UHGV virus genome: UHGV-0038496
Origin: a virus
DNA length: 64,000 nt
Reading direction: 5' to 3' (one strand)
The notes beneath the pieces are model-generated. The model saw nothing but the letters and a program-made list of their open reading frames with translations, searched no databases and was not told the DNA's origin. A program made the translations under genes and the position numbers. Below are positions 3,557 through 64,000 of this stretch, one piece after another (position 1 is the first letter of the stretch; the number at the start of each line of letters is the position of its first letter).

Positions 3557-5116
3557 TTAATTTTCCATATTTGATACAGAATTATCGCGTGTGGATGACA
3601 TTCTGGACGTGCCATTACCGTTGGTCCCCGCTGCCATACCGTCACCTGACCGACTTACATTCTGACCCAGTATTTGCATTAACTCTTCATTATCAATATC
3701 CTCTTCGACACGGTAGTCAAAACCACCAACTTCAAGGATTTTATTGATAACGCCTGGAGTTTTAGGCAGATAACCAACTGCACCGATACGCTGTACGAAT
3801 TTGGAGAACTCTTCCATGTCAACTTTTTCAGTCAACCCTGGTTTGAGTTTCGGCATATCCTCGTTGGAGAGGTAGATACCGTTCAGCGCCAGCATCTGAG
3901 GAATGAAGTCTTTGTTGAAAGCCTCAACAATAATGTCAATATCACGGTTAACGAAGTGACCATGTAAGGACTGTTTGGACTCAGACAACGAATAAGAACC
4001 AACGTTGTCGTTACCCAAGTTAATGAAACCAGCACCAAATCTATCAAGGATAGCTTTCTTACGTGCATCAACAAGATCTTTGGTGGAGTATTGTTTACCA
4101 GCACCATTGATCCCTTTCAGGTCCATAGAATACTGTTCTTTACCTGATTTATCACGATCCGATGGGAGAATAAAGAAACTCTGTTCACCGGAGTGGGCAT
4201 TTGCAGCATCTGCCATCAGGTTAGCAACCATCTGACCTTCCATAGAGGTGGGGTCGATACTTGCTTTATTCAGAATGTTGGATGGTATTTTCAGCTCAAG
4301 TACACCACCAAGGTCTTTAGAGCAACCAACCACTTCGAGGTTTTCAATCAGCACTTTCTCACGGAAGGATCTGTAACAACCGATCATGGGTGAAACACCT
4401 GCCGGATTGGACTCTGTACCGGAGAGAGTCATGATCATGATTTTCTTAGCAGGAATGAAAATTTCTTCCCCATTGAAGTCTGCCGGGGCAGAAAGCAGTG
4501 GGCCAGCGTATTTACCTTTCTTAGCTCCAGAGAACGCTGCGGGGTCCTGCCATATACCTTCAAGTTTGCGACTGTTTTTATCAAACTGGAACGGGTTACT
4601 GCGGGACAGGCTCGCTTGAGGCCTGAATGCAAACTTGTCGATAACTAATTTACCAGCGTACTCACCTTCCTGTTCACGACGGTAAACTTTCTCAAATACT
4701 GAGAAGCCGTATTCGTTAAAAGTGGCTGCACTTCTTGCGATATCGCGGAGTGTTTGCTGGTTAGCGAGATTACGCAAAGCATAATCAATAAAGGCTGCTG
4801 CTTTCTTAGATTCTTCACTCTCTTCGTTGCAGAGAATTTTGAAATCGTTGAAGGCTTTGGTGATCAGTACGTATTTAGAATCCAGAGCGGTAGCTACTGT
4901 TGAGTCGCATTTCATCGTCTCTACGGTAGCAATAAGGTTGGGCCAACGCAATTCCTCAACCATCATCTGCTGAGATTCAAATTGGATCTGAGCCAGTGCA
5001 CCGGAACCAATCTCTCCCAGACGAACATTATGCACCTGGGCATCTTGATTTCCAGCTTTTTTCACAGCCCTTACTTTGGCTGCTGCGTTGTTTTTCCTAC
5101 GGCTTTTCTTGGACAC
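3557..5116 (-). CDS. portal protein
   Basis: 519 aa ORF directly downstream of terminase large subunit, basic N-terminus and acidic C-terminus; gene order. Confidence 0.55.
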   Translation of the reverse strand: MSKKSRRKNNAAAKVRAVKKAGNQDAQVHNVRLGEIGSGALAQIQFESQQMMVEELRWPNLIATVETMKCDSTVATALDSKYVLITKAFNDFKILCNEESEESKKAAAFIDYALRNLANQQTLRDIARSAATFNEYGFSVFEKVYRREQEGEYAGKLVIDKFAFRPQASLSRSNPFQFDKNSRKLEGIWQDPAAFSGAKKGKYAGPLLSAPADFNGEEIFIPAKKIMIMTLSGTESNPAGVSPMIGCYRSFREKVLIENLEVVGCSKDLGGVLELKIPSNILNKASIDPTSMEGQMVANLMADAANAHSGEQSFFILPSDRDKSGKEQYSMDLKGINGAGKQYSTKDLVDARKKAILDRFGAGFINLGNDNVGSYSLSESKQSLHGHFVNRDIDIIVEAFNKDFIPQMLALNGIYLSNEDMPKLKPGLTEKVDMEEFSKFVQRIGAVGYLPKTPGVINKILEVGGFDYRVEEDIDNEELMQILGQNVSRSGDGMAAGTNGNGTSRMSSTRDNSVSNMEN

Positions 5117-5132
5117 AAGATTACCCTCAAGT

Positions 5133-5164
5133 TAGACAAAAGAAATAGCCCTCCGAAGAGGGCT
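5133..5164 (-). terminator. rho-independent terminator between terL and portal
   Basis: Hairpin AGCCCTCTTCGGAGGGCT followed on minus strand by ATTTCTTTTG; same hairpin sequence reused at 37614 on plus strand. Confidence 0.5.
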
Positions 5165-5216
5165 TAGTTATGCTCTATAGATTATTGTAACACATTCATC
5201 TAAAATTGGCAACTAC

Positions 5217-6021
5217 TTAAATCATCCTCTTATACATAGAGGGTGAAACAATCTTCGGAATAACACATGGCATCGCAACTTCCTCTTTTTCAAGGTAGTT
5301 GATTGCAGAAGCAATGGAGTCGGCCCAGTCATCTTTACGGCTAAAGGTTGACCGTTCGCCGTTGAATTTCTCCAGCTCTGTCAAAAATGCTTCCAGTGTA
5401 TCAGGGTCGAAACTTGACCTGACAAGCCGAACCATACCCTGTTGGGCAAGGTTGGCAAACGGTGAGAAACGGGTGAGTTTTGATTTGTTAGACGGCATTG
5501 GGTCTTCTTCCACCCTGAAACCTCCAGCAAGGAGTTTGCGGGATGAAGTAAGAAACTCACTCTTACCTGCCTGACCGGGGTCCACAGAGAAGACAATCAC
5601 ACAATCTTCACCATCAAACTCTGCCTGTTTCCTGATAATAACATCGCGTTCACCAGCTTTCTTGCAGAACTTACCGCTCAAGCCTGTGGAATACCTGCCA
5701 TCATCTACGTTTTCAGGACAATAGTCACCAGAGATGTAGTAGTAACCATCGCTATCCTTGCTGACTTTGATACTGGCTGTATAGTCGGGGAATTTGTTGC
5801 CAGAGGTACGTTCTGTACCAGCTTTATCCCACGCTCTTACAGAAACTGCTCCTAGGGGGACATGATCCGCATCTTTCAAGAATGTGCGACTGAAATAGTT
5901 TGCGCCTTCCGGTTTAGCGAACCAGTTACCATAGAGAAGTTGTGCTTTTTCCAGTTCTGGCAGACCTTCTAGGAATGCAAGATATTCTGGGTTATCACGC
6001 AAGCAGATAGGGTTATCGTGT
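5217..6021 (-). CDS. terL: terminase large subunit, exon 3 (C-terminal nuclease domain)
   Basis: Frame contains LLYGNWF-type terminase C-terminal motif; upstream boundary set where conserved intron 3' core ends (approximate). Confidence 0.55.
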
Positions 6022-7009
6022 CCTGGTGTTCAGGGCCGGACGCAACTCCGACCCCCGTTGGTTCCATCCACCGCATCCATGCTCGGCTGCATGTTACCAT
6101 GCAGAGCAGACTATATCACGATCCTGTTTCTCACAGGACCCTTCGCTTTTCGAGCACCATCAGCTTGTGCCCTACTCCCTTTCGGGATAGTCGTTGAACT
6201 ACAATTACCAATCATAATTGTTTGAAATGTAAGTATAAGTTTTCCTTTCCTTGATACTTTTCACTGTACGGTGAGAAACCCCCCACAATCTTGCCACCGC
6301 ACCAACGGATAAGCCTTTTTGTAAATCTTCGCAGATACCAATCACCTTGTGCTCACTTATTCTGTTAGCTGAAGGTATTTCCCTAAAGTGAAACTCCGCA
6401 GAGATATCTGGGTATACTGATCCATTCTTTATACCACTTACAAGGGTTTGATTGACACCGAACATCTGACAGATATCTTTTACCCTTGCACCTTGCTCTA
6501 ATAGCCTGCATATTTCAAGGGCAGTGGCATCATCCAAATACCTGTATTTATTTACATAATCTTTTTTAAGTCCAGTTTCATGGGCGTGGTGTGTGTTTTC
6601 CTCTGGGGTTGTCCACTCAAGGTTCCATGCGGCGTTATTCAACTTATTACCGTCCAAGTGATTTACTTGGGTTTTCACGCTAGGATTATCATTATCAACA
6701 AAAACCTCAGCAACAACTCTGTGAACAAGCACTTGGAACTTTTTGCCGTCCTCACACAGGGAAACCACAGCATAGCCTGTCTTTTTATGCGTAACAGGTT
6801 GAAGGAATTTATTAGAATACAAACTATAAATTCTGCCATCATATGTCACGCAATAGTGTGGGTAACCTAAAAATCCTAAATTCTTCATTTCAAACACTCC
6901 CTACTACAGTTTCGGAAGAATAATTATAGCTGCTGATTATCTGAAAGTCAATCAGATTTTCCAGCAATTAACGAAGTTATTCGACGTGCATTACTGCACG
7001 AAGCCACTA
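6022..7009 (-). mobile_element. group I intron A in terL (contains HNH homing endonuclease gene)
   Basis: Separates two in-frame terL fragments; RNA sense has AACGACUAUCCC and GAUAUAGUCUG (S-element-like) plus CUGCAUGG..ACAUGCAG hairpin; core near-identical to nrdD introns; 5' end approximate. Confidence 0.55.
6205..6897 (-). CDS. HNH homing endonuclease (intron-encoded)
   Basis: 230 aa; HRVVAEVFV...NHLDGNKLNN...NLEW HNH motif; lies inside terL intron A. Confidence 0.7.
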   Translation of the reverse strand: MFEMKNLGFLGYPHYCVTYDGRIYSLYSNKFLQPVTHKKTGYAVVSLCEDGKKFQVLVHRVVAEVFVDNDNPSVKTQVNHLDGNKLNNAAWNLEWTTPEENTHHAHETGLKKDYVNKYRYLDDATALEICRLLEQGARVKDICQMFGVNQTLVSGIKNGSVYPDISAEFHFREIPSANRISEHKVIGICEDLQKGLSVGAVARLWGVSHRTVKSIKERKTYTYISNNYDW

Positions 7010-7333: not shown

Positions 7334-7966
7334 CGTTTGTGTTCAGGCAAGGTCGCTAATCTTGCCCCGCCACCATGTGGCAGCTGCATGTCTCCATGCA
7401 GACCAGACTATATCTTATAAGCGGTAACAACCGCCTATCCTCCCGTTTCGGCAGTCTTAAAAGACTGTGGGTTTCCCCAGCCGCTTGGCCCTAACGCCCG
7501 TAAGCGATAGTCGTTGAGCACACATCCTATCAGGATGCTTCGCTGCGGATTATCTAAATCAACACACTATTACCATACCTTCGGTCTTTCTCCAAAGCCA
7601 ATATTATGTTACCATAATAGATTGGTGGTGTCAATAGTAAAGATTTCCCCGCAATTAGGGAGGTTTTACGAGAGCTACCAACTAACCCTCGTCAAAGCAT
7701 ATTAAAGTATATTCCACTTTTGTCCCGCCGGATCGCTACTCCGACGCGGTGTGCTAAGACACCCGCCACATATTACCATGTGGAACAGACTATCTCTTCC
7801 ATCCTTGGCGTGCCGTTTGGATCACCAATCGCTTGTGATTCTACTCCCCTACACTCATCGGGGATAGTCGTTACACTCGGTTTCAATTAATCCTTTAACC
7901 GTAGCTCGGTATTGTCCTTTTGTCAAGGAGTTTCACCGAATTAGGCACGAAGGGCAGGTTTGTTTA
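7334..7966 (-). mobile_element. group I intron B in terL (ORF-less, duplicated core; possibly two tandem introns)
   Basis: Two copies of the AACGACUAUC(C/G)C ... (A/G)AUAUAGUCUG ... hairpin ... CCUGAACAC core in RNA sense; no credible ORF; boundaries by analogy with nrdD intron 2. Confidence 0.45.
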
Positions 7967-9079
7967 CCCTTGATGATTCAGCTTATCTTGGACGTATTCC
8001 ATGTGGCAGTACTTGATTACCGCACCATCCCTTTTCTTATTCCACTTACCTGTCTTTGCATCGTAATATGGAAAAGTAAACTTATGATCTTTCTCCCTAA
8101 ATTTTGGCCTCATATATTCAGGAAGATCCAGATACACACTTAGTGCTTTAGGCCACAGACCGCCTTCACCTTCCAGTTGTGGGGTTGTCCTACGGAACAT
8201 CACCACAGAGGTGTTTGGGTCATCTATCATCTTTAGTGGGAGAAGCTGCAAAAGAAAGGATTTACCACTGTTGCCTGTCACTGCAATGCAGTTTTCCAGT
8301 CTGGTGATAAAATAGCCTGTTGTGGTAGCAAAACAATATTTGTAACCATCTTCCGGCTCAAACTCTTCGAACGTTGCATCGTTATTAAGAGCAATCGTAC
8401 CTGCACGTTCGTTGGAGAACACAACTTTGTAACCCTTTTCGAAGAAGATCTGTGCATTGAATCCCAGAGATGATCCGAGGTATTGCAAGAAATCAGCCTG
8501 TTCTTTCGTTGGAACAACGTAGACATGCGAGTCATTACCGTTCAGGTAAATCTCATACCAGATCTGCAACAACTGGCGACGATCACAGTTATACCATTCA
8601 TCTGTGAATTTGTAATATCTTGCCTTTTCTTTCAGCTCTTCGTCAGAAATATCAAGGCCAGTACCACCCATGTTCACAAACGTGGTTTGCATACGCATTG
8701 CCAACTCATCGTTAGCATGTTGTTCGGCCACTTCACTGAAACAAAGTGTACCGTAATCTGTTCCGTCTTCTGGTACATACAGGACTGTGTGCTCGTCAGA
8801 CAATTCCTGACAAATACCATCCTGCACAACCCTGGTCAATTTATCGCATTCCAGCTTAACAAACTCTTCAGGCTGGATAAACATAGCCTTACCAGTTTCT
8901 TTATCAAACTGGAGGATATCTTGACCATCCCAGTCTGAGATTCTGATCCAACCGTTAGGTGTCATCACCTCATGTCGCATTGACAAACAACCCGCTGCCC
9001 CACCAATGATCAGGAAGTCGGCATCATTTTCCAGAATCATTTGTTGTTTACGGGAGCATGGGCCATACATTTTAGCCAT
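7967..9079 (-). CDS. terL: terminase large subunit, exon 1 (ATPase N-terminus, contains intein)
   Basis: N-terminus ...FLIIGGAAG then, after 240 aa insert, SGKSFLLQ: restored Walker A GGAAGSGKS; ATG at 9079 overlaps o-spanin stop. Confidence 0.6.
8270..8989 (-). mobile_element. intein inserted in terL Walker A (P-loop)
   Basis: 240 aa in-frame insert starting with Cys (CLSMRHEVMTPNGWIRISD, intein block-A-like) and ending ...IAVTGN before Ser+1; removal restores Walker A. Confidence 0.6.
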
Positions 9080-10206: not shown

Positions 10207-10282
10207 TGGCACCCCGTACAGGACTCGAACCTGTAACCTATGGCTTAGAAGGCCACTGTTCTTCCATTTGAACTAACGGGGC
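10207..10282 (-). tRNA. tRNA-Arg (anticodon TCT)
   Basis: 76 nt cloverleaf on minus strand: acceptor GCCCCGT/ACGGGGT (G1-U72), D stem GTTC/GAAC, anticodon stem GTGGC/GCCAT with loop CTTCTAA, T arm ACAGG-TTCGAGT-CCTGT, encoded CCA. Confidence 0.8.
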
Positions 10283-31055: not shown

Positions 31056-31833
31056 AAACTACTATTGCTCATGTAAAACCTATCTAAACGGGGGAACTCT
31101 CTACGGAGAAAATCCCGTGCTAAACGTAACAGAACTCCCGGAGAAAAGGAGTCCTGAAATGAGAAAACAAATTCGTGATTTTGAAGGGTATGAAATTGAC
31201 GAGATGGGAAATGTTTATTGCACCCGCTACGAAAAGGAAAGAATCATCCATCCGTGGGAAGAAATAAACACAGGCTACCTTCTTGTCAGGATACGCAAGA
31301 ACAAGAAAACTGTTTGCCTGAGGGTTCACAGACTTGTTGCTGAAGCGTTTTTACCGAATCCAGACAATTTGCCCTATGTTAAGCATAAGGGTGACAACAA
31401 GAAAGATAACAGCGTATACAATCTTGAGTGGGGTGCTTGCCCAGATAATACCCAGGAAGGTTACGACAACAACTGTTATACTTTTTACACAAGGTGTCAC
31501 GGTGTGAAAGCTACCAACAAACTGACTGGTGAAGTTTTCCACTTTAAGAGTCTGAGATGCTGTGCTGATACTTTAGGGGTGGATAGAAAAAGAATATCTG
31601 CTATCCTGAAGCGTGGAGCACCTAATAACTATGATTACGAGTTCTGTTACGAAATGCCGAACGACTAACCGTGATGAATGTAGCGGTGTAGGGTGCAAGC
31701 CTATGGCACTCCAAAAGATAGGCACACGAAAGTGTGAAGATATAGTCTGATCTGCATGGTGACATGCAGCCGAGCATGGATGCGGTGGATGGAACCAACG
31801 GGGGTAGTGTTGCGAGCTACTCTGAACACAATG
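31056..31833 (+). mobile_element. group I intron 2 in nrdD (HNH endonuclease-containing)
   Basis: Exon 2 ends ...ATGGGT, intron ends ...CACAATG (omega-G), exon 3 begins TGT giving continuous ...SMG/CRSF...; AAGATATAGTCTG and CTGCATGG..ACATGCAG hairpin near 3' end. Confidence 0.6.
31159..31668 (+). CDS. HNH homing endonuclease (intron-encoded)
   Basis: Start at MRKQIRDFEGYEIDEMGNVY after AAAGGAG; VHRLVAEAFLPNP...NLEWG. Confidence 0.65.
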   Translation: MRKQIRDFEGYEIDEMGNVYCTRYEKERIIHPWEEINTGYLLVRIRKNKKTVCLRVHRLVAEAFLPNPDNLPYVKHKGDNKKDNSVYNLEWGACPDNTQEGYDNNCYTFYTRCHGVKATNKLTGEVFHFKSLRCCADTLGVDRKRISAILKRGAPNNYDYEFCYEMPND

Positions 31834-32808
31834 TGTAGAAGTTTCTTGAGTAAATACAACGATCCTGTAACAGGTGAAGAGAAATATCTCGGTCGTTTCA
31901 ACTTAGGTGTGGTAAGCCTGAACCTACCTATGATTGCAGCTCGTTCCAAAGCTGAACAGGTAGATTTCTTCAAACTGCTTGACGAGTATCTTGAACTGGC
32001 GTATGATGCTCATATGGTACGTGTGAACCGTTTGAAAGGCACAAAAGCTGGACAGAACCCGATCATGTGGTGTGAAGGTGTTCTGGCTCGTCTTGATCCT
32101 AATGAGGAGATTGACAAACTGTTCTACGATGGCTATGCTTCTATAAGCATCGGCTATATTGGTGTTTATGAAACATGCCAGATCCTTGGCAGAGAAGGCG
32201 ACAAAAACCTTGCTCTGGGTATCCTCCAGCACATGAAGGATAAATGTGTTGAGTTCAAAGAACGCAGCAGATTAGGTTTTAGCCTGTACGGCACACCAAG
32301 TGAAAATCTCTGCTATAAAGCGGCTACTTGCTTAGACAGGGCGTATCCTGGAGTTCTGGAGCACGAAAGGGAATATCTGACTAATTCGTTTCATCAGCCA
32401 GTCTGGATCAAGAGCAGTCCTTTCGACAAGTGGGACTATGAAACCGGATTCGCAGCGATCTCCAACGGAGGGTTCATAGGTTACGTTGAACTACCTAATT
32501 TACGTAACAATCTCGATGCTTTGGAAAAAATTGTTGATTACGGGTACACCCATTTGCCATATTTCGGCATCAACATGCCTGTTGACCAATGCTTCAAATG
32601 TGGCTTCCGTGGGGAATTTTCTGCCACTGCAAAAGGGTTCTGCTGCCCTGAGTGTGGTAACCATGACGAAAGTAGCATCAGTGTGATCCGAAGAGTATCA
32701 GGCTATCTGTCTGCACCTAATGCTCGCCCATTCAATCGAGGGAAACAATCGGAGGTGTTAGAAAGGGTTAAACATGTCGGCAACGTAGATTGTTGTAGTA
32801 TCTGTTAA
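31834..32808 (+). CDS. nrdD: anaerobic ribonucleoside-triphosphate reductase, exon 3 (C-terminal zinc ribbon)
   Basis: C-terminal CFKCG...CCPECG zinc ribbon as in class III reductases. Confidence 0.6.
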   Translation, partial: CRSFLSKYNDPVTGEEKYLGRFNLGVVSLNLPMIAARSKAEQVDFFKLLDEYLELAYDAHMVRVNRLKGTKAGQNPIMWCEGVLARLDPNEEIDKLFYDGYASISIGYIGVYETCQILGREGDKNLALGILQHMKDKCVEFKERSRLGFSLYGTPSENLCYKAATCLDRAYPGVLEHEREYLTNSFHQPVWIKSSPFDKWDYETGFAAISNGGFIGYVELPNLRNNLDALEKIVDYGYTHLPYFGINMPVDQCFKCGFRGEFSATAKGFCCPECGNHDESSISVIRRVSGYLSAPNARPFNRGKQSEVLERVKHVGNVDCCSIC

Positions 32809-36585: not shown

Positions 36586-37599
36586 ATGAACAAATTTTAT
36601 AACAATCGTCGTCAGCCTGAACGCAACGAGAAAGCAGTAGAACCGATGCAGAACAAAATGTTTGGTATGCCTGGTGGCATCATGGAAACATACAGCTATC
36701 CTGCTCCGGTTATGGATCACGTCATCTATATTGATGACTTAGAAGACCTTCAGGACCATCTATCTCGTTTACAACTGATCCGTATGCTGCAACCTGATGA
36801 TTCTATTCGTATTATCATCAATAGCCCAGGGGGTTGCGTTAACATTGCTATGGCTTATCTCCAGGCAATGCGTGAATCTCAGGGCCATGTAGTTACTCAT
36901 GCGGAAGGTATGGTTTGCTCTGCTGGTACTATTTTGTGGTTAGGTGCAAAAGAACGTACTTTGTCTCCGAACTGTGAGTTCATGTTCCACAACTATCAGG
37001 GCGGTACTTTCGGAGACGGTGCTAACATGCACGATCAGGTGACTTTCTTCAAACGTCATTTTGATCGCTTGATTGATAAAATGTATACTGGGGTGTTAAC
37101 TGAAGAAGAGATTGCTAAAATTAAAGGTGGTGGTCAGGTTTGGTTGAACGAAGAAGAGATCGCTGAACGTACTGGTGCAATCATCCTTGACGAAGAGAAT
37201 ATTGCACGTATTCAGGCTGGTCAGCAGGCTTTACCTTTCAACAAAGACCGTGGCGTGTTAGGTGAAGAAGGTTTACCGGAAGTTCATCAATGCAGCTCTA
37301 TGGAAGAACTGGTAAAAGCTATCCATGAAGCGAAAGCAAAAAGCAATGAAGAAGATAAACCGAAAGATGTTTATCTGAATCTGCTGATGGACGATGGTCG
37401 TAACTTTAAACTGAACGTTGCAACGTTAAGTGAAGAAGAGCTGAAAGACTTCACTGTTGCAGAACTTCGTGAGATTCTGGTTCAATTACACGGTGCTTTA
37501 ACTGGTGAAGAAATTGAAGTTAAAGACAACAACCGTGGTCGTCTGGTTAAGAAAATCATCAAAGCTGGCAAAGATCTTCATGATAAATTGCTGGGCTGA
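36586..37599 (+). CDS. ClpP-like serine protease with C-terminal extension
   Basis: ClpP-type motifs around INSPGG and MVCSAG (Ser) in N-terminal half; about 150 aa acidic coiled-coil-like extension. Confidence 0.55.
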   Translation: MNKFYNNRRQPERNEKAVEPMQNKMFGMPGGIMETYSYPAPVMDHVIYIDDLEDLQDHLSRLQLIRMLQPDDSIRIIINSPGGCVNIAMAYLQAMRESQGHVVTHAEGMVCSAGTILWLGAKERTLSPNCEFMFHNYQGGTFGDGANMHDQVTFFKRHFDRLIDKMYTGVLTEEEIAKIKGGGQVWLNEEEIAERTGAIILDEENIARIQAGQQALPFNKDRGVLGEEGLPEVHQCSSMEELVKAIHEAKAKSNEEDKPKDVYLNLLMDDGRNFKLNVATLSEEELKDFTVAELREILVQLHGALTGEEIEVKDNNRGRLVKKIIKAGKDLHDKLLG

Positions 37600-37613
37600 T
37601 TAACATAACGCTA

Positions 37614-37637
37614 AGCCCTCTTCGGAGGGCTTTTTTG
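37614..37637 (+). terminator. rho-independent terminator
   Basis: AGCCCTCTTCGGAGGGCT followed by TTTTTT. Confidence 0.65.
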
Positions 37638-37653
37638 ATCTGGAGATTTATTT

Positions 37654-38172
37654 ATGACCTGTGCTCGCAAGCCAGATAGTGAACGTAAACCCTATGATGA
37701 GTATGTCACCCCACAATATTTAGCGGATGCACTGTTTGAACTGATTGACTTCCCTGACCACTTCACATTCATGGAGCCATGCAGAAACAGTGCAACAGGG
37801 CCGTTCTACAGTAATATGCCGTTAGGTTCAGCCTGGGGTGAGATTCAGGAAGGTGTAGACTACCTTGAAACAGATTATCCACATGTTAACTGCATTGTGA
37901 CCAACCCGCCATTCTCTAAAGCCAAAGAGTTTATTGAGAAAGGCATGGACGATGCTGATGTGGTGATCATGTTACTCCGTCTTAACTTCCTTGAGTCAAA
38001 GACACGTTATGAGTGGTGGCAAACTCACCAACCCACAACGATAATCACCATTGCCAAGCGTCCATCCTTCCAGGAGAACGGCAGAACCGATGGTCAGGCC
38101 TATGCCTTCTTTGTGTGGGATAAACAGGACCTGCTGAAACTTCCACCATTTATGTGGATAGGGCCAGAATAA
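37654..38172 (+). CDS. putative DNA methyltransferase-like protein (NPPF motif)
   Basis: VTNPPFS motif IV-like and EPCRNSATGPF motif I-like; short (172 aa). Confidence 0.35.
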   Translation: MTCARKPDSERKPYDEYVTPQYLADALFELIDFPDHFTFMEPCRNSATGPFYSNMPLGSAWGEIQEGVDYLETDYPHVNCIVTNPPFSKAKEFIEKGMDDADVVIMLLRLNFLESKTRYEWWQTHQPTTIITIAKRPSFQENGRTDGQAYAFFVWDKQDLLKLPPFMWIGPE

Positions 38173-47431: not shown

Positions 47432-47458
47432 GGAGGGAGCTTCGGCTCCCTTTTTCTT
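47432..47458 (+). terminator. rho-independent terminator
   Basis: GGAGGGAGCTTCGGCTCCC followed by TTTTTCTTT. Confidence 0.6.
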
Positions 47459-50199: not shown

Positions 50200-50525
50200 C
50201 AAATGGCCTGAAGAGTCAAATCATTTCCCCTCTTTAAGCCTCTTTGATCCGATTAACATGCTAATTATTCACAGAAAATACCCACACATAGCCTAAGCAC
50301 TTGATTTCATTGTGAAATATGGCCTGAAGAGCACCACATATTTTAACATACCTTTAACATAATACTTCCCCCGTATATACCTCCCCGCCCTGTCCAGGAG
50401 TCCCGTAAATACTGGCTTCCCCACAAATATCAGCACCACAAATATCACAGGCCTGAAGAGGGCCTCATTTTTTTTTATTCGCACCTCCCCCTCCCCCGTA
50501 GGGCGGTACATAGCCTGAAGAGGCA
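50200..50525. repeat. four dispersed copies of (G)GCCTGAAGAG
   Basis: Copies near 50208, 50322, 50449, 50512 in ORF-free DNA. Confidence 0.45.
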
Positions 50526-52651: not shown

Positions 52652-52683
52652 ACAACAAAAAGGCCGCTTATTTGCGGCCCCTT
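52652..52683 (-). terminator. rho-independent terminator
   Basis: AAGGGGCCGCAAATAAGCGGCCTTTTTG on minus strand after gene ending at 52701. Confidence 0.6.
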
Positions 52684-52700
52684 ATTATTTCGTTGATAAA

Positions 52701-57927: not shown

Positions 57928-58200
57928 TATTCCCCTTTCAAGAATAAGTATACACACAACAGACCACATTGCAAGAAAAATTTTATCAGATGATAACTAT
58001 TCTCATTTTGCAGGAGGCAACACTTTTGAGTCTGGATCGCTTCGAGGTTGGCAATAGTGGAAGCGTTGAAATCGATTTTTAGGCACCTGGCAGGGCCTGT
58101 AACGGCCTGGAATGGTGGGGGCTTTACACTTGCATATCTTGCTGGTAAATCTTGATGGCGGGGCTTACAGGAAGGATTTAAAACACAGGAGGCAGGGCCA

Positions 58201-58228
58201 TAAAAAAGGCCGCTGATTTGCGGCCCTT
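58201..58228 (-). terminator. rho-independent terminator
   Basis: AAGGGCCGCAAATCAGCGGCCTTTTTTA on minus strand. Confidence 0.6.
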
Positions 58229-58246
58229 CATAATAGTTTCACATTG

Positions 58247-59440: not shown

Positions 59441-59515
59441 GATTTGTCACTCCTTTTAAATTGTTTACTGCTTTCGATTATCAGTATACTTGTTTTTTCT
59501 GATTTGTCAACCTTT

Positions 59516-59743
59516 CTAGACTTCTTCCGGTGCCGCTTTAAAGAATCCTCTAATGATCCGGCCTCCCCTTACACTTCTTGAAAAAATTGCGTCAACCTCG
59601 CGCCTGAATGCCTCTACCCAGATATCGCCCTTACTATCGCTATTCCTAACAATCCAGGCCATACGGTAGACCTTGTTATCGAAATTAATCACACCTTTAG
59701 ATGGTTTAACTCGATTCATGGGGAACTTGATAACGTTGCTCAT
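59516..59743 (-). CDS. hypothetical protein
   Basis: 75 aa, GAGGAAAATAAA-ATG. Confidence 0.45.
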   Translation of the reverse strand: MSNVIKFPMNRVKPSKGVINFDNKVYRMAWIVRNSDSKGDIWVEAFRREVDAIFSRSVRGGRIIRGFFKAAPEEV

Positions 59744-59907
59744 TTTATTTTCCTCGCTTAGTTGTTTATTTTTGTAGTGGGAGGTTTATAACCTCCCTCC
59801 TCTGTGTTTATAATGCTGCCCGTATATGATGTACCAGATGTTTAAAAGCTCGCGCCAGGTAAATTTATCATCTTCGGGCTTTTCTTTATCGTTTTTCATA
59901 CCCAACC

Positions 59908-59994
59908 TCATTTTTTGTTATTCAGACCTTTTAACATTTCTTTAATGAAATCTTCCACCCTTTCATATTCGTTTGCTTTGTAGTAGTCTTTCAT
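59908..59994 (-). CDS. hypothetical small protein
   Basis: 28 aa ORF with the same GAGGAAAATAAA-ATG context as the 59516 gene. Confidence 0.25.
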   Translation of the reverse strand: MKDYYKANEYERVEDFIKEMLKGLNNKK

Positions 59995-60300
59995 TTTATT
60001 TTCCTCGTTTTCTTTCAGCTTCCCCCGGTTTATCCGGTCCTTGTTGCCTCCCTGCATCCTTTCCTTTCAACTTTATTTTACTGCTTTGTGTTACCTTGTC
60101 AACCTTTTTTACTTCTTTCTAGTTTTAGGGCTTTTCGGCTCCCTCGGTCCTTCGGTTAGCTATGCTTCAAGGCTTTTCCTTTACCCTTCTTTTCCCGCTC
60201 CCGGAACTTTCCTTTCTGTTCCCTTTCTTCTCCTTTCGACTATAGAATACCAAACCGGGGGGCCGTGTCAATACCTTTTTCACAACTTTCTTAAAAATTT

Positions 60301-60405
60301 TTACTTCCGCATGTTGCTTAAGATAAAACCAACAACCAGGCAGCAGATAACCACAAAGGCCAGGCCCACAGCGATAAACGGATTCATCAGCATTTCAAGT
60401 AACAT
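60301..60405 (-). CDS. hypothetical small membrane peptide
   Basis: 34 aa hydrophobic ORF after GGAGG. Confidence 0.3.
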   Translation of the reverse strand: MLLEMLMNPFIAVGLAFVVICCLVVGFILSNMRK

Positions 60406-60407
60406 GA

Positions 60408-60617
60408 TCAGGCCTCCAATACCATAATTTCAAAGCGTGCGACGATAGGGCTAACGTCTACGAGGCACATCGGATCGACTACGCGATGGATAACGACTAG
60501 ATGATCATCATGCTTATCGATGTAATAATCCTCGTTATCAATTATTTCGCTTAGGTCATAATAACGGCCTTTCTCATAGCGGCCCCGTGCATCATTGGCA
60601 TAATCACAGTAGACCAT
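60408..60617 (-). CDS. hypothetical protein
   Basis: Start at ATG after AGGAGG (MVYCDYAND...). Confidence 0.45.
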   Translation of the reverse strand: MVYCDYANDARGRYEKGRYYDLSEIIDNEDYYIDKHDDHLVVIHRVVDPMCLVDVSPIVARFEIMVLEA

Positions 60618-60773
60618 TTTGCTTTCCTCCTGCTGTGTTTCTTCTTTCAATTAAAATAATACGCAGATCCTACAAGAAGTAAATAAGGTTTTACCTATTG
60701 ATTTTTGCGTTAGATGTGTTTTACAGGTTGGGGAGTGGCAAACGAAGAAAGGCCCCACCAGGGGGCCTATCGG

Positions 60774-60995
60774 TTAAATTTCGTCTGCTTTCATGCGTTC
60801 ACGCCGTGCTGCATATTTCATTTGCTGGCGTTCACGTTCAAGTAACAGGCGGCGTAAATTACGGTCGTAATAGTTGCGCCACAGTTTACCGAAGCGGCGC
60901 GGCTTGTTCAATTTGTTGTTACGCTGGCGGCGTTCCGGCAGTTCATCAGATAAATGATTGCGTTTAGTGATTTTTTCAAAGTTTACCATGTTCAT
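60774..60995 (-). CDS. hypothetical Arg-rich protein (possible nucleic-acid binding)
   Basis: 73 aa, about 25 percent Arg/Lys; AGGAGC RBS. Confidence 0.45.
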   Translation of the reverse strand: MNMVNFEKITKRNHLSDELPERRQRNNKLNKPRRFGKLWRNYYDRNLRRLLLERERQQMKYAARRERMKADEI

Positions 60996-61009
60996 AATCG
61001 GCGCTCCTG

Positions 61010-61348
61010 TTACTCGTTATCGTCGTTTTCTTCTGCTGCAATATTTGCCGCTACTGCTTTAATAAATTTTTTCGCGTCACCGTTGCGGCCCCACAGGTCA
61101 ACGATTAAAAATCCTGCCTGCTTTATCTTATTCGTGTACTCCAGCAAGTTGTAAGCCGGGATCGGCGACGGCGTTACATATTGTTTCCCGTGTCGGTCCT
61201 GGTACTTGATAACATAATCAGCACCCGGATCAATATCCCACGGATTCACCCGAAAAGCCTGGCACCTGGCGTAATAACTTTGATTTCTTACTTTGTTCCA
61301 GACTACCCCGATTGCAATAAATGTAAGTATGCACGTCACTAGATCCAT
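61010..61348 (-). CDS. membrane-anchored protein
   Basis: Start at MDLVTCILTFIAIGVVW after AAGAGGA; one N-terminal transmembrane helix. Confidence 0.45.
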   Translation of the reverse strand: MDLVTCILTFIAIGVVWNKVRNQSYYARCQAFRVNPWDIDPGADYVIKYQDRHGKQYVTPSPIPAYNLLEYTNKIKQAGFLIVDLWGRNGDAKKFIKAVAANIAAEENDDNE

Positions 61349-61435
61349 AGATTTTTCCTCTTTGCTATTGTGTGGGCATAATGTCACCTCCTCCTGGTTG
61401 GATAGGGGGCCGGACTCCCGGCCCCGCCTGGTATG

Positions 61436-61684
61436 TTATCCTAACATTTTAAAATAGTTGACGTTCAAAATTTTTTCAATATCGTCAACCGCTTTGATAT
61501 GCATGAAAGCAATCAATTTACCATCGATGCGGATAACCGGGCGGCCCAGGTGATAACCTTTAATCATACGCGCTTTTACTTTTCCACCTGCTCCCCCTTC
61601 ACGCCACCAAATGGCTTTTCCGTTGCTGTAATACCAATCAGCTTTTACCAGGTCCACCGCTGCAAAGTTAATTAATTTAGCCAT
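61436..61684 (-). CDS. hypothetical protein
   Basis: 82 aa, GAGAGGAG RBS. Confidence 0.45.
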   Translation of the reverse strand: MAKLINFAAVDLVKADWYYSNGKAIWWREGGAGGKVKARMIKGYHLGRPVIRIDGKLIAFMHIKAVDDIEKILNVNYFKMLG

Positions 61685-61761
61685 TGCGTAACTCCTCTCT
61701 TATTGTGGTTACACTAAATTATCTTTATGGATGGCCCCGCCAGGGCCATCTAAAAGGCAAC

Positions 61762-62100
61762 TTAGTTACGTAACGCTTCCTCTACTTCCTGCAATTCTGC
61801 TTCAAGGTCGGCCAATTCGTCGCACAAATCACAATAGTTTGCGTCATCGCTTACGTCTACGCTGTCTACATAGTCATTCAATCCGCAACGATAAGCAATC
61901 GGATCCAATTCGCGTAAGATTCTAGACGGTAAAAATTCGCAACCGCCTACCACTACCGCACCGCCTTCGTCTAGTACTTCATTGTAGTCATCTTCATAAT
62001 CAGCCGGATCGATTTCAAAATTCTCGATTTTATTGTTCAGTTGTTCGATAGCTGCAACCAGAGCGGCACGACGTGCAATCATTTCGACGTTAGCGTTCAT
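61762..62100 (-). CDS. hypothetical highly acidic protein
   Basis: 112 aa, Asp/Glu-rich; AGAGGAGA RBS. Confidence 0.5.
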   Translation of the reverse strand: MNANVEMIARRAALVAAIEQLNNKIENFEIDPADYEDDYNEVLDEGGAVVVGGCEFLPSRILRELDPIAYRCGLNDYVDSVDVSDDANYCDLCDELADLEAELQEVEEALRN

Positions 62101-62137
62101 AATGTTTTCTCCTCTGTTGTTACTTATTACTGTGGTT

Positions 62138-62166
62138 AGTTTACTTTATTGATGGCCCCGTGTCAA
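62138..62166 (-). promoter_or_regulatory. sigma70-like promoter within inverted-repeat module
   Basis: Minus strand TTGACA-17-TAAACT; -35 flanked by inverted repeat GATGGCC (62151-62157) / GGCCATC (62177-62183). Confidence 0.5.
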
Positions 62167-62198
62167 TACTTTTTGAGGCCATCTAAAAGCAAGCTATT

Positions 62199-62558
62199 TT
62201 ATTTGTATGCTAGTTCCACATAAAACCGCGCCATCAGTTCAAACCATTCTTCAATGTAACGTTCTTTAGTATCTTCTTTAGTTTTTTCATCAATGATCCC
62301 GAACTCACGCAGGCGGTTTAAAATGTCATCGTTGCAAAAATCGATATCAACACCGCTAGGAAGACCAGCCAGCCAGTCAGCCATAGCCTTCACACGATTG
62401 CCATTGAAGCGACGGATATAATAGCCGTCGAAATGCTCAGCTTCAAAGCGTGCTTTCAGTTCCTCAACGTCGTTGTCGTGTTCCATGTCATCAAAGTTCA
62501 AGCTATCAACTACATACTCACGAATTGCGTTAGCCATAGCCTTATTGATGCGTTTCAT
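62199..62558 (-). CDS. hypothetical protein
   Basis: 119 aa, AAGAGGAAAA RBS. Confidence 0.5.
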   Translation of the reverse strand: MKRINKAMANAIREYVVDSLNFDDMEHDNDVEELKARFEAEHFDGYYIRRFNGNRVKAMADWLAGLPSGVDIDFCNDDILNRLREFGIIDEKTKEDTKERYIEEWFELMARFYVELAYK

Positions 62559-62650
62559 AATATTTTCCTCTTTGTGATTTACTAATTACTTCTTTCAGTT
62601 TTAAGTTTACTTATTTTTGCTACCGTGTCAACTAATTTTTTGAATTTATT

Positions 62651-62743
62651 TTACATCATTACACGAAAGACCAACATAACCAGGTAGACCAGTACCATAA
62701 TCATAACATCGCGGCGGATCTGATAGCGAGAATAATTTTTCAT
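62651..62743 (-). CDS. hypothetical small membrane peptide
   Basis: 30 aa ORF after GAAGGGGAAA. Confidence 0.3.
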   Translation of the reverse strand: MKNYSRYQIRRDVMIMVLVYLVMLVFRVMM

Positions 62744-62774
62744 GATTGTTTCCCCTTCGTTGTGTGGATTTTTA

Positions 62775-62803
62775 GGTTACTTTATAGATGGCCCGGTGTC
62801 AAT
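62775..62803 (-). promoter_or_regulatory. sigma70-like promoter within inverted-repeat module
   Basis: Minus strand TTGACA-17-TAACCT; inverted repeat GATGGCC (62788-62794) / GGCCATC (62810-62816) around -35. Confidence 0.45.
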
Positions 62804-62825
62804 ATCCAGGCCATCGAAAAACAAC

Positions 62826-63236
62826 CTATAAGCTCATATAGTCACGATGTGCAATCATCCATGCAGCGTCTTTGTTTTCACAATAGCCGACGTGGCGAGA
62901 CTCCCCATCATAACGATAGATAACCTGGTAAACTGCTTCCCCTCTAAGGTCCAGGACGTGGCGCACTTCGTAACGTTTGCAACGTTTAACTTGTGCGATA
63001 CGTGCCCCGAAAATTAGTTTTACCAGTTCTTTCCAATGGCGACGGGCATCAGTTAAAGACACCACACTAAACCATGCTTGCCGCTCGCCATCAGCATTAA
63101 AAGCGCGAACATGGTAGCAACCGTGGGCCTTAAACAGATCCACCATTTCACGATCCCGCCCCTCTACCATTTGAACATATCCGCAAGCTAAAGCGAACGC
63201 AGTTAAACCATTTGCATTACGGAAAGTAGTTTTCAT
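62826..63236 (-). CDS. hypothetical protein
   Basis: 136 aa, CAGGAGAAAGG RBS; Cys/His-containing. Confidence 0.5.
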   Translation of the reverse strand: MKTTFRNANGLTAFALACGYVQMVEGRDREMVDLFKAHGCYHVRAFNADGERQAWFSVVSLTDARRHWKELVKLIFGARIAQVKRCKRYEVRHVLDLRGEAVYQVIYRYDGESRHVGYCENKDAAWMIAHRDYMSL

Positions 63237-63315
63237 GATCCTTTCTCCTGTGTTTTATTAATCTCGTTTACTGCTTTCATTGTTAAGTATACTTGTTTTT
63301 TATCGCCTGTCAACT

Positions 63316-63426
63316 CTATTTTTCATCTTTTTTAAAGAAATCGATCAGGCCTTTGATAACTGCCGCCAGGTGCAAGCCCAGCAAAAAGAAGGCATAGCCT
63401 ACAATGATTGCCGCGATAATGTTCAT
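63316..63426 (-). CDS. hypothetical small membrane peptide
   Basis: 36 aa ORF after CAGGAGG. Confidence 0.3.
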   Translation of the reverse strand: MNIIAAIIVGYAFFLLGLHLAAVIKGLIDFFKKDEK

Positions 63427-63500
63427 AATGTTGCCTCCTGTTGTGTGAATAGTAACTTTATTCATGGGGCCGTTGCTACAGCCCCAGGGTAAAGCGGCTA

Positions 63501-63746
63501 TTAGTGCGGCATTCCTACCATAGCGGCGCGGATGTTAGTTTTATTGTAAGGCACTCCATCAGGCGTATGAGTGATCCCCTCTTCTTTCAAGCGGTAAACC
63601 ATTAAATCAGCTGCCGCGTCTTTATTGCCACACTCATTAATCAGGCCCATCGCTAAAAACCATAAACCTTCGTCATTGTTGATCCAAAGTGCGACGTTCC
63701 ATTGATTGTAATTTTTCCAACCGTTATAACCTTTATTGCCTTTCAT
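63501..63746 (-). CDS. hypothetical protein
   Basis: 81 aa, AAGAGGA RBS, Trp/Asn-rich. Confidence 0.45.
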   Translation of the reverse strand: MKGNKGYNGWKNYNQWNVALWINNDEGLWFLAMGLINECGNKDAAADLMVYRLKEEGITHTPDGVPYNKTNIRAAMVGMPH

Positions 63747-63802
63747 AATTTTATCCTCTTTAGTTTTTGCCTCTGGGGAAATTTCTTTCCCTTTCGGTTT
63801 AT

Positions 63803-63830
63803 ATACTACATCTTTATTCTACCGTGTCAA
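63803..63830 (-). promoter_or_regulatory. sigma70-like promoter
   Basis: Minus strand TTGACA-16-TAGTAT; -35 overlaps stop codon of upstream partial gene. Confidence 0.45.
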
Positions 63831-64000
63831 CATTTTTTAAAGAATTTTTCTACCGTGATATCTTTCCCAGCAGGTTTAGCCACTTTCAGAATTTTATCAT
63901 GCACCGGGCGCCCGAAAGAATAAGCGCCATACACAGTAAGCCAATAATCCCCGTTAGGCTGTACTATTACCGCTGCATATGGTACGCCTTTCTCGTTATC
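63827..64000 (-). CDS. hypothetical protein, 5' end beyond window
   Basis: Open frame from window edge to TGA at 63827-63829; not in track because partial. Confidence 0.35.
   Translation of the reverse strand, partial: DNEKGVPYAAVIVQPNGDYWLTVYGAYSFGRPVHDKILKVAKPAGKDITVEKFFKKC

Follow-up and report, generated by a model that had tools for sequence, protein, structure and literature searches.

Identical UUCG-loop hairpins on opposite strands of an uncultured rV5-like phage genome are probably two separate intrinsic terminators

The intercistronic C(UUCG)G hairpins of phage T4, which Tuerk et al. are said to have examined experimentally in 1988, are reportedly unusually stable. Hairpins of this T4 type have a terminator or mRNA-stabilising role, and are found repeatedly both in a single phage genome and across different ones. 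Intrinsic terminators of the E. coli type, reportedly described by d'Aubenton Carafa et al. in 1990, consist of a hairpin followed by a U-tract. In phage lambda, the promoter PR' is closely trailed by the terminator tR', which is read through only with Q.

Among the 20 terminators predicted for the coliphage rV5, five have TTCG loops (Kropinski et al. 2013, Virol J 10:76, PMC3606486, Table S4). The terminator t122, GCCCTCTTCGGAGGGCTTTTAT with -14.9 kcal/mol, follows the ClpP-like gene. The terminator t064ABC, GCCCTCTGACGAGGGCTATTTTGTTAT (GCCCTC-TGAC-GAGGGC) with -11.5 kcal/mol, lies between terL and portal at 57949-57975, and the predicted late promoter P064 (57980-58016) is located immediately upstream of it (PMC3606486, Table S4). 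In the other neighbouring pairs of late promoter and terminator in rV5, the terminator comes first and then the promoter (t041/P040, t049/P048 and t052/P051) (PMC3606486). The terminators t213 and t232 have the same hairpin sequence (PMC3606486, Table S4).

The window, which is the whole stretch of 64,000 nucleotides analysed here (virus genome UHGV-0038496), is by sequence comparison an uncultured sister lineage of the genus Vequintavirus (rV5-like coliphages; Vequintavirinae). This placement follows from the low nucleotide identity to the rV5-like coliphages, only 67-79%, together with the 89-98% identity of the ClpP-like and TerL proteins to those encoded by a few IMG/VR contigs, all from one metagenome. 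The sequence around the two sites described below was only about 67-76% identical to that of rV5-like phages. The megablast search of the ClpP region against phage genomes gave no match, and a more sensitive blastn mode was needed to obtain matches. Approximately 18 GenBank records (MG0656xx) titled 'Campylobacter phage', 129-143 kb long and unannotated, aligned with the rV5-like coliphages over terL, portal, nrdD and ClpP. The identity of these records to the rV5-like coliphages equalled that of Escherichia Vequintavirus genomes, and their host labels look doubtful.

The 16-mer GCCCTCTTCGGAGGGC was present in exactly two copies in the window, at 37615-37630 on the plus strand and at 5148-5163 on the minus strand, and no further copy was found there when up to two mismatches were allowed. 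The expected number was 0.01 in 100 dinucleotide-preserving shuffles. The repetition was thus not at chance frequency, and a chance origin of the two copies was ruled out by this random-sequence null. A sequence-only reading of the same DNA had reported an identical terminator hairpin on both strands, with the second site at 5140, and had regarded the hairpin as its own reverse complement. The repeat itself stood, but the second copy lies a few bases away at the position given above, and GCCCTCTTCGGAGGGC is not a true palindrome, as its loop TTCG has the reverse complement CGAA. The second copy is the same sequence on the minus strand, and therefore each copy is oriented with its own surrounding genes. 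With each copy on the same strand as its genes, both RNAs would contain a hairpin with a C(UUCG)G tetraloop and then a U-rich run. The exact stretch common to both sites was 21 nt, CTAAGCCCTCTTCGGAGGGCT, which took in 2-3 nt outside the stem. When the comparison was extended, 24 of 25 positions matched, so that the two sites form a 25-nt inverted repeat with 96% identity, 32.4 kb apart. The features of the two sites, and of a third hairpin in the window, are as follows.

5217-6002, minus strand: last terL exon with the nuclease domain (Pfam Terminase_6C; terL of rV5 is annotated as joined from three pieces)
5184-5212, minus strand: promoter-like element, TTGCCA, 17 nt and TACAAT, with TG before the second hexamer (promoter scan; matches P064 of rV5, TGGTACAATA)
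5147-5164, minus strand: hairpin with a 7-bp stem, AGCCCTC/GAGGGCT, and a UUCG tetraloop (sequence, folding of 5133-5178, relatives)
5137-5146, minus strand: interrupted U-rich tail, AUUUCUUUUG (sequence)
3557-5116, minus strand: portal gene with a GTG start and the SD GAGGG at 5124-5128 (Pfam Portal_Mu)
36586-37599, plus strand: ClpP-like protease gene, 337 aa (Pfam CLP_protease, 2.4e-15; annotated as ClpP-like protease in relatives)
37613-37632, plus strand: predicted terminator hairpin with an 8-bp stem, AAGCCCTC/GAGGGCTT, and a UUCG tetraloop (terminator scan, folding, relatives)
37631-37636, plus strand: U-tract TTTTTT, of which the first two T also pair in the stem (sequence, terminator scan)
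37637-37656, plus strand: leader of the next gene, GATCTGGAGATT, with the SD GGAG at 37642-37645 and the ATG at 37654 (sequence)
37654-38172, plus strand: downstream gene, whose counterparts are annotated as DNA N6-adenine methyltransferase (annotation of relatives)
47432-47453, plus strand: third predicted UUCG-loop terminator, located between two plus-strand ORFs, with a stem, GGAGGGAGC/GCTCCCTTT, unlike that of the pair

The gene context proposed in the sequence-only reading, namely the end of a ClpP-like gene and the gap between terL and portal, was confirmed by the Clp_protease, Terminase_6C and Portal_Mu domains. The distance from the stop codon to the copy was 13 nt for the ClpP-like gene and 52 nt for terL, on the coding strand both times. 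The stems were perfect, with 8 bp in the plus-strand copy and 7 bp in the minus-strand copy, and each had five G-C pairs and a 4-nt loop. The 46-nt contexts gave minimum free energies of -13.8 kcal/mol (plus-strand copy, z = -2.6) and -14.3 kcal/mol (minus-strand copy, z = -3.1). All six positions of the tail were U in the plus-strand copy, and seven of nine in the minus-strand copy, in which the sequence after the stem reads ATTTCTTTT (interrupted, AUUUCUUUU). On the opposite strands no T-run followed either hairpin, and the sequences there read AGCGTTATGT and TAGTTATGCT. The stem of the plus-strand copy is followed by TTTTTT, by GATCTGGAGATTTATTT and then by the ATG of the next plus-strand ORF. 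The hairpin at 47432-47453 has the same layout as the ClpP site, with a stop codon, the hairpin, a U-run, an SD and an ATG in this order. Three perfect-stem tetraloop hairpins with a T-rich tail were found in the window, and all of them had TTCG loops.

These hairpins resemble E. coli-type intrinsic terminators in the G+C-rich stem of 7-8 bp, the 4-nt loop, the U-tract starting from the stem and the stop codon just before. Unlike those terminators, the minus-strand copy has an interrupted U-tract and is located downstream of a promoter-like element. With the C(UUCG)G hairpins of phage T4 they share the G+C stem, the C-G-closed UUCG loop and the intergenic position, whereas the phage family is a different one, no sequence homology is implied, and the stability of the hairpins in the window is a predicted one. 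A G+C stem of about 5-14 bp with a loop of 3-8 nt, a U-tract on the transcribed strand only, an upstream stop codon and a structure kept in relatives are the sequence-level marks of an intrinsic terminator, and both copies show all of them. The earlier identification of the copies as terminators was further supported by matching annotated or published terminators of rV5-like phages. Termination itself and its efficiency are predictions from the observed anatomy, orientation, matching sites, conservation and generic distribution of the hairpins.

The 16-mer at the ClpP site was identical to that of rV5 t122, in the same position and orientation. The terL site and rV5 t064ABC were alike in position, orientation and the stem of 6-7 bp, and the upstream P064 was also conserved. 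In Vequintavirus the loop at the terL site is TGAC, TGACAC or TAACAC, so that the two terminators of these phages are not identical; in contrast, the loop TTCG in the lineage of the window gives rise to the identity of the 16-mer. A terminator is annotated at the ClpP site in the Murica record, and the rV5 and HdK5 records have a rho-independent terminator annotated between terL and portal with the same stem. Judged from these correspondences, the repeated 16-mer most probably represents ordinary, already known intrinsic terminators, the counterparts of those published for rV5.

Conservation was seen at both sites. The hairpin at the ClpP site was identical in four IMG/VR relatives, in RudolfGeigy and Murica of Vequintavirus and in one more IMG/VR contig; in RudolfGeigy and Murica, the ClpP-like gene is followed by an identical AAGCCCTCTTCGGAGGGCTTTT. 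The 36-nt block at this site, AAGCCCTCTTCGGAGGGCTTTT-N-TGATCTGGAGATT (AAGCCC...GAGATT), had one variable position across both clades, and the surrounding sequence was approximately 67% identical. The stem arms AGCCCTC/GAGGGCT at the terL site were invariant, and the loop was TTCG, TGAC, TGACAC or TAACAC depending on the lineage. Such an invariant stem with a variable loop fits selection that would act on structure, and since no compensatory stem changes were seen at either site, the support comes from conservation and not from covariation. The hairpin at the ClpP site was absent from the Seunavirus, Henunavirus and Klebsiella-phage relatives examined, in which the ClpP-like and methyltransferase genes overlap instead. 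The hairpin between terL and portal was absent from the Seunavirus, Avunavirus, Certrevirus and Henunavirus relatives examined, in which the annotated spacer is only 15-48 nt. Within this sampling, both intergenic hairpins are features common to Vequintavirus and the lineage of the window. The outgroup genera examined, which lack the hairpins, give no indication of the ancestral loop.

The sequence downstream of the ClpP-site hairpin was also inspected. The Pfam search of the ORF at 37654-38172 gave no match at E <= 0.001, and the name methyltransferase is taken from the annotation of relatives. The leader at 37637-37648 contains GATC (a Dam-type site) and GGAG directly 5' of this gene, for which relatives have the annotation DNA N6-adenine methyltransferase. 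Every base of this leader is conserved in both lineages, and it may simply be the RBS region.

The hairpin turned out to be widespread. At least 120 unrelated viral contigs of IMG/VR contained the 18-mer AGCCCTCTTCGGAGGGCT, and the sequences upstream of it were unrelated to each other. It was also present in at least 120 contigs of bacteria or archaea, which spanned many phyla. Five or more T were found in the next 8 nt in 108 of the 121 viral copies listed (on the TTCG strand) and in 94 of the 122 bacterial or archaeal copies listed. The same stem with the permuted loops TCGT and GTTC, used as controls, gave 0 and 2 matches, respectively. Over 100 other contexts contained the stem with an ATTT tail, and the loops in them were of dozens of different kinds. 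Among the unrelated loci listed, 3 of 240 had AGCCCTCTTCGGAGGGCT twice within 8 kb, again with unrelated flanks. A set of 1 Mb of viral loci contained seven non-target UUCG terminators, a number too small for an estimate of the stem distribution, and a search for a published survey of UUCG loops in terminators gave nothing directly useful in the literature covered. The hairpin being generic, the random-sequence null is the wrong null for the two copies.

The explanation that we favour, with a probability of about 0.88, is that the copies are two separate intrinsic (rho-independent) terminators, each oriented with its own transcription unit and each probably inherited in place from the common ancestor of Vequintavirus and the lineage of the window. 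Their identity would reflect reuse of a generic, near-optimal hairpin and no shared mobile or recombining element. The most plausible reading of this identity is that a near-optimal terminator hairpin was arrived at repeatedly or was retained.

The terL-portal site raised the question of a further function, as the promoter-like element, the hairpin and portal are arranged there in the reverse of the order in the other late pairs of rV5. A terminator that simply ends a gene would not usually follow a promoter-like element, and this order suggests that the hairpin has a further role or another one; from its position, the hairpin may also attenuate or shape the portal leader. We consider it unlikely that this copy is mainly a promoter-proximal leader element and not the terminator of terL. 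In that case it would either serve as an attenuator, to be overcome by a phage factor in the style of lambda PR'-tR', or influence the stability or translation of the portal mRNA as a structure in its 5' UTR. The promoter-like element adjoins the hairpin upstream and is the counterpart of P064, which stands upstream of t064ABC; its -35, -10 and 17-nt spacing were kept in both lineages, and other positions of the spacer varied. The late-promoter motif TGKTAMAATA, however, was found at chance frequency in the window (two matches compared with 0.92 expected), and no hairpin followed the second match, at 50339. The predicted transcription start lies approximately 13 nt before the stem, as estimated from the position of the -10. 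Such a short distance speaks for a leader element, but 13 unpaired 5' nucleotides would be long for a protective 5' hairpin, given the 5'-end dependence of RNase E. The interrupted tail and the weak stem (-11.5 kcal/mol in rV5) suit partial termination. By its kind, the element would remain an intrinsic terminator on this reading as well. The site may be compared with lambda PR'-tR' in the order of promoter, terminator and head-morphogenesis genes. This likeness is in layout only, and the leader of approximately 13 nt before the hairpin is far shorter than that of lambda PR'-tR'. The more specific proposal, that the hairpin is a conserved promoter-proximal attenuator approximately 13 nt past the start of a late-type promoter, gating or scaling portal and the downstream head genes and possibly acting via a phage-encoded read-through factor, is in our estimate rather doubtful.

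The identity of the two sites might also have come about by short-patch gene conversion, or by copying of one hairpin of approximately 20 nt when the ancestral spacers arose, with a later change of the terL loop in the rV5-like phages; we regard either course as improbable. In both lineages, the two sites have one and the same 7-bp stem, AGCCCTC/GAGGGCT. The confinement of both hairpins, with this stem, to the same two sister lineages among the genera examined would be compatible with a common origin when the two spacers arose. The sharing of 21 nt, 2-3 of them outside the stem, by two of roughly a dozen terminators would be unlikely if G+C-rich stems were naively taken as independent, and this leaves room for reuse of a hairpin of approximately 20 nt within the genome. 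However, in close relatives of the window the stretch common to the two sites is only 19 nt long, and the 7-nt arms are very short and poor substrates for conversion. Other identical or near-identical terminator pairs in the group, t213/t232 of rV5 and 52657-52688 / 58203-58234 of the window (88%), and the recurrence of the 18-mer within 8 kb in 3 of the 240 unrelated loci, seemingly above independent draws, speak for copying. On the other hand, no other loop comes near TTCG in frequency, either on this stem wherever it occurs or in rV5 terminators, so that convergence is expected. Nothing beyond the hairpin itself supports conversion or copying, and no outgroup genus examined has either hairpin to indicate a direction of change.

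Several other elements were observed in the window. The near-identical pair at 52657-52688 and 58203-58234 is terminator-like (AAAAAGGCCGC-loop-GCGGCC..., 32 nt) and forms a direct repeat; reuse of terminator hairpins seems to be recurrent in this phage group. The long G-rich hairpin terminator at 533-562 on the minus strand, GAAGGGGGGAGGGG-GGAC-CCCTCTCCCCTTT, resembles rV5 t060 (GGGGAGGGGGTTCTCCCCCTCCCC) in sequence and is a candidate for a positionally conserved terminator. The region 59463-63835 contains the repeat families D1, D2, D5 and D8, which are blocks of 20-50 nt with 70-96% identity located 0.5-3 kb apart. These blocks contain TTGACA-like and RBS-like sequences in the minus-strand reading, and look like reiterated promoter/leader cassettes before an array of small, probably early, genes. 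A tRNA-Arg with the anticodon TCT was found at 10207-10282 on the minus strand.

Beyond the 21-nt core, the flanks of the two sites were unrelated. The ungapped flank identity over 120 nt was 31% and 28%, and Smith-Waterman alignment of the 300-nt flanks gave scores of 12 and 12 compared with shuffle means of 12.4 and 11.7; a search for flank homology thus found alignments no better than those of shuffled sequence. The window, four IMG/VR relatives, rV5 and Murica agreed in the order of the sites, their divergent orientation and the spacing of 27-34 kb. None of these seven genomes had an inversion isomer of the segment between the inverted copies, and both hairpins were present in every examined member of both lineages. 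The sequence-only reading had suggested a duplicated element or a recombination hotspot. It is very improbable that the pair represents a short element of the REP or MITE type that was duplicated or is mobile, or inverted repeats acting as a recombination or inversion hotspot. The excess of two copies over 0.01 expected, the long-range inverted repeat of 25 nt and the absence of both hairpins from the other Vequintavirinae genera examined would agree with such an element. Against it stand the number of copies, which is no more than two, the separate counterpart of either site in the sister genus, and the generic occurrence of the 18-mer in phages and bacteria that are unrelated. The class of REP-/MITE-like elements was rejected on the shuffle-level flanks, the two copies only and the lack of presence/absence variation among relatives, and the class of inversion or crossover sites on the single orientation among the seven genomes. 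A longer inverted repeat in the window, with 67 nt and 97% identity, corresponds to group I introns and not to the hairpin sites.

This 67-nt repeat was the strongest long-range repeat in the window and connects 6051-6117 with 31739-31805 (terL and nrdD regions). Further intron-related repeats were 7383-7416 with 31737-31770, and 6157-6197 with 7477-7517 and 7847-7877. Matches to group I introns in Rfam were located at 7384-7720, 7766-7986 and 6087-6395 on the minus strand and at 31663-31769 on the plus strand, one above the Rfam threshold (80 bits) and three sub-threshold (28-42 bits). The terL gene appears to be interrupted by two or three introns and nrdD by a related one; terL of rV5 was published in three segments. 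The near-identical segments of the terL and nrdD introns suggest recent intron spread or conversion between the genes. The ORF at 6205-6897 on the minus strand, located between terL exons, has HNH_3 and helix-turn-helix domains and is most likely an intron-borne homing endonuclease. The region 31600-31900 matched 329 phage records, and the best match was at least 95% identical in 229 of the 329. The matches included Tequatrovirus, Salmonella, Yersinia and Shigella phages, and the surrounding genome is only approximately 80% identical to any known phage. The best rows listed for this region were nrdD/HNH regions of rV5-like phages with approximately 83% identity. The high-identity matches likely represent a widely shared intron or homing-endonuclease-associated segment.

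If the copies are two separate intrinsic terminators, as we prefer, the G+C-rich stem, with the very stable C(UUCG)G tetraloop at its tip, would fold fast behind RNA polymerase. With the polymerase on the weak rU:dA hybrid of the U-run while the stem forms, the transcript would be released. The plus-strand copy (8 bp, U6) would be the stronger of the two and would end most of the ClpP-like transcripts. The promoter scan between this hairpin and the next ATG found nothing, and the 23 nt before that ATG are too short for a promoter, so that the methyltransferase gene must depend on read-through of the terminator. With the methyltransferase gene expressed only in this way and lacking a promoter of its own, the terminator should act as an intra-operon attenuator, which would lower the expression of the methyltransferase compared with that of the ClpP-like protein. 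The minus-strand copy (7 bp, interrupted tail) would be weaker and would stop part of the transcription before portal, both that coming from terL and that coming from the conserved putative promoter just upstream.

These results indicate that the arrangement of terminators published for rV5 is retained in an uncultured phage of the rV5 type. The pair would be an example of near-optimal C(UUCG)G terminator hairpins recurring independently, and such short 'repeats' of identical sequence at the ends of genes are not to be taken for mobile elements or recombination sites. If the attenuator reading of the terL-portal site were true, the switch of the loop to UUCG in the lineage of the window would have tightened the gate. 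In Vequintavirus-like phages, the conserved order of promoter, hairpin and portal could represent a leader that regulates the expression of head genes.
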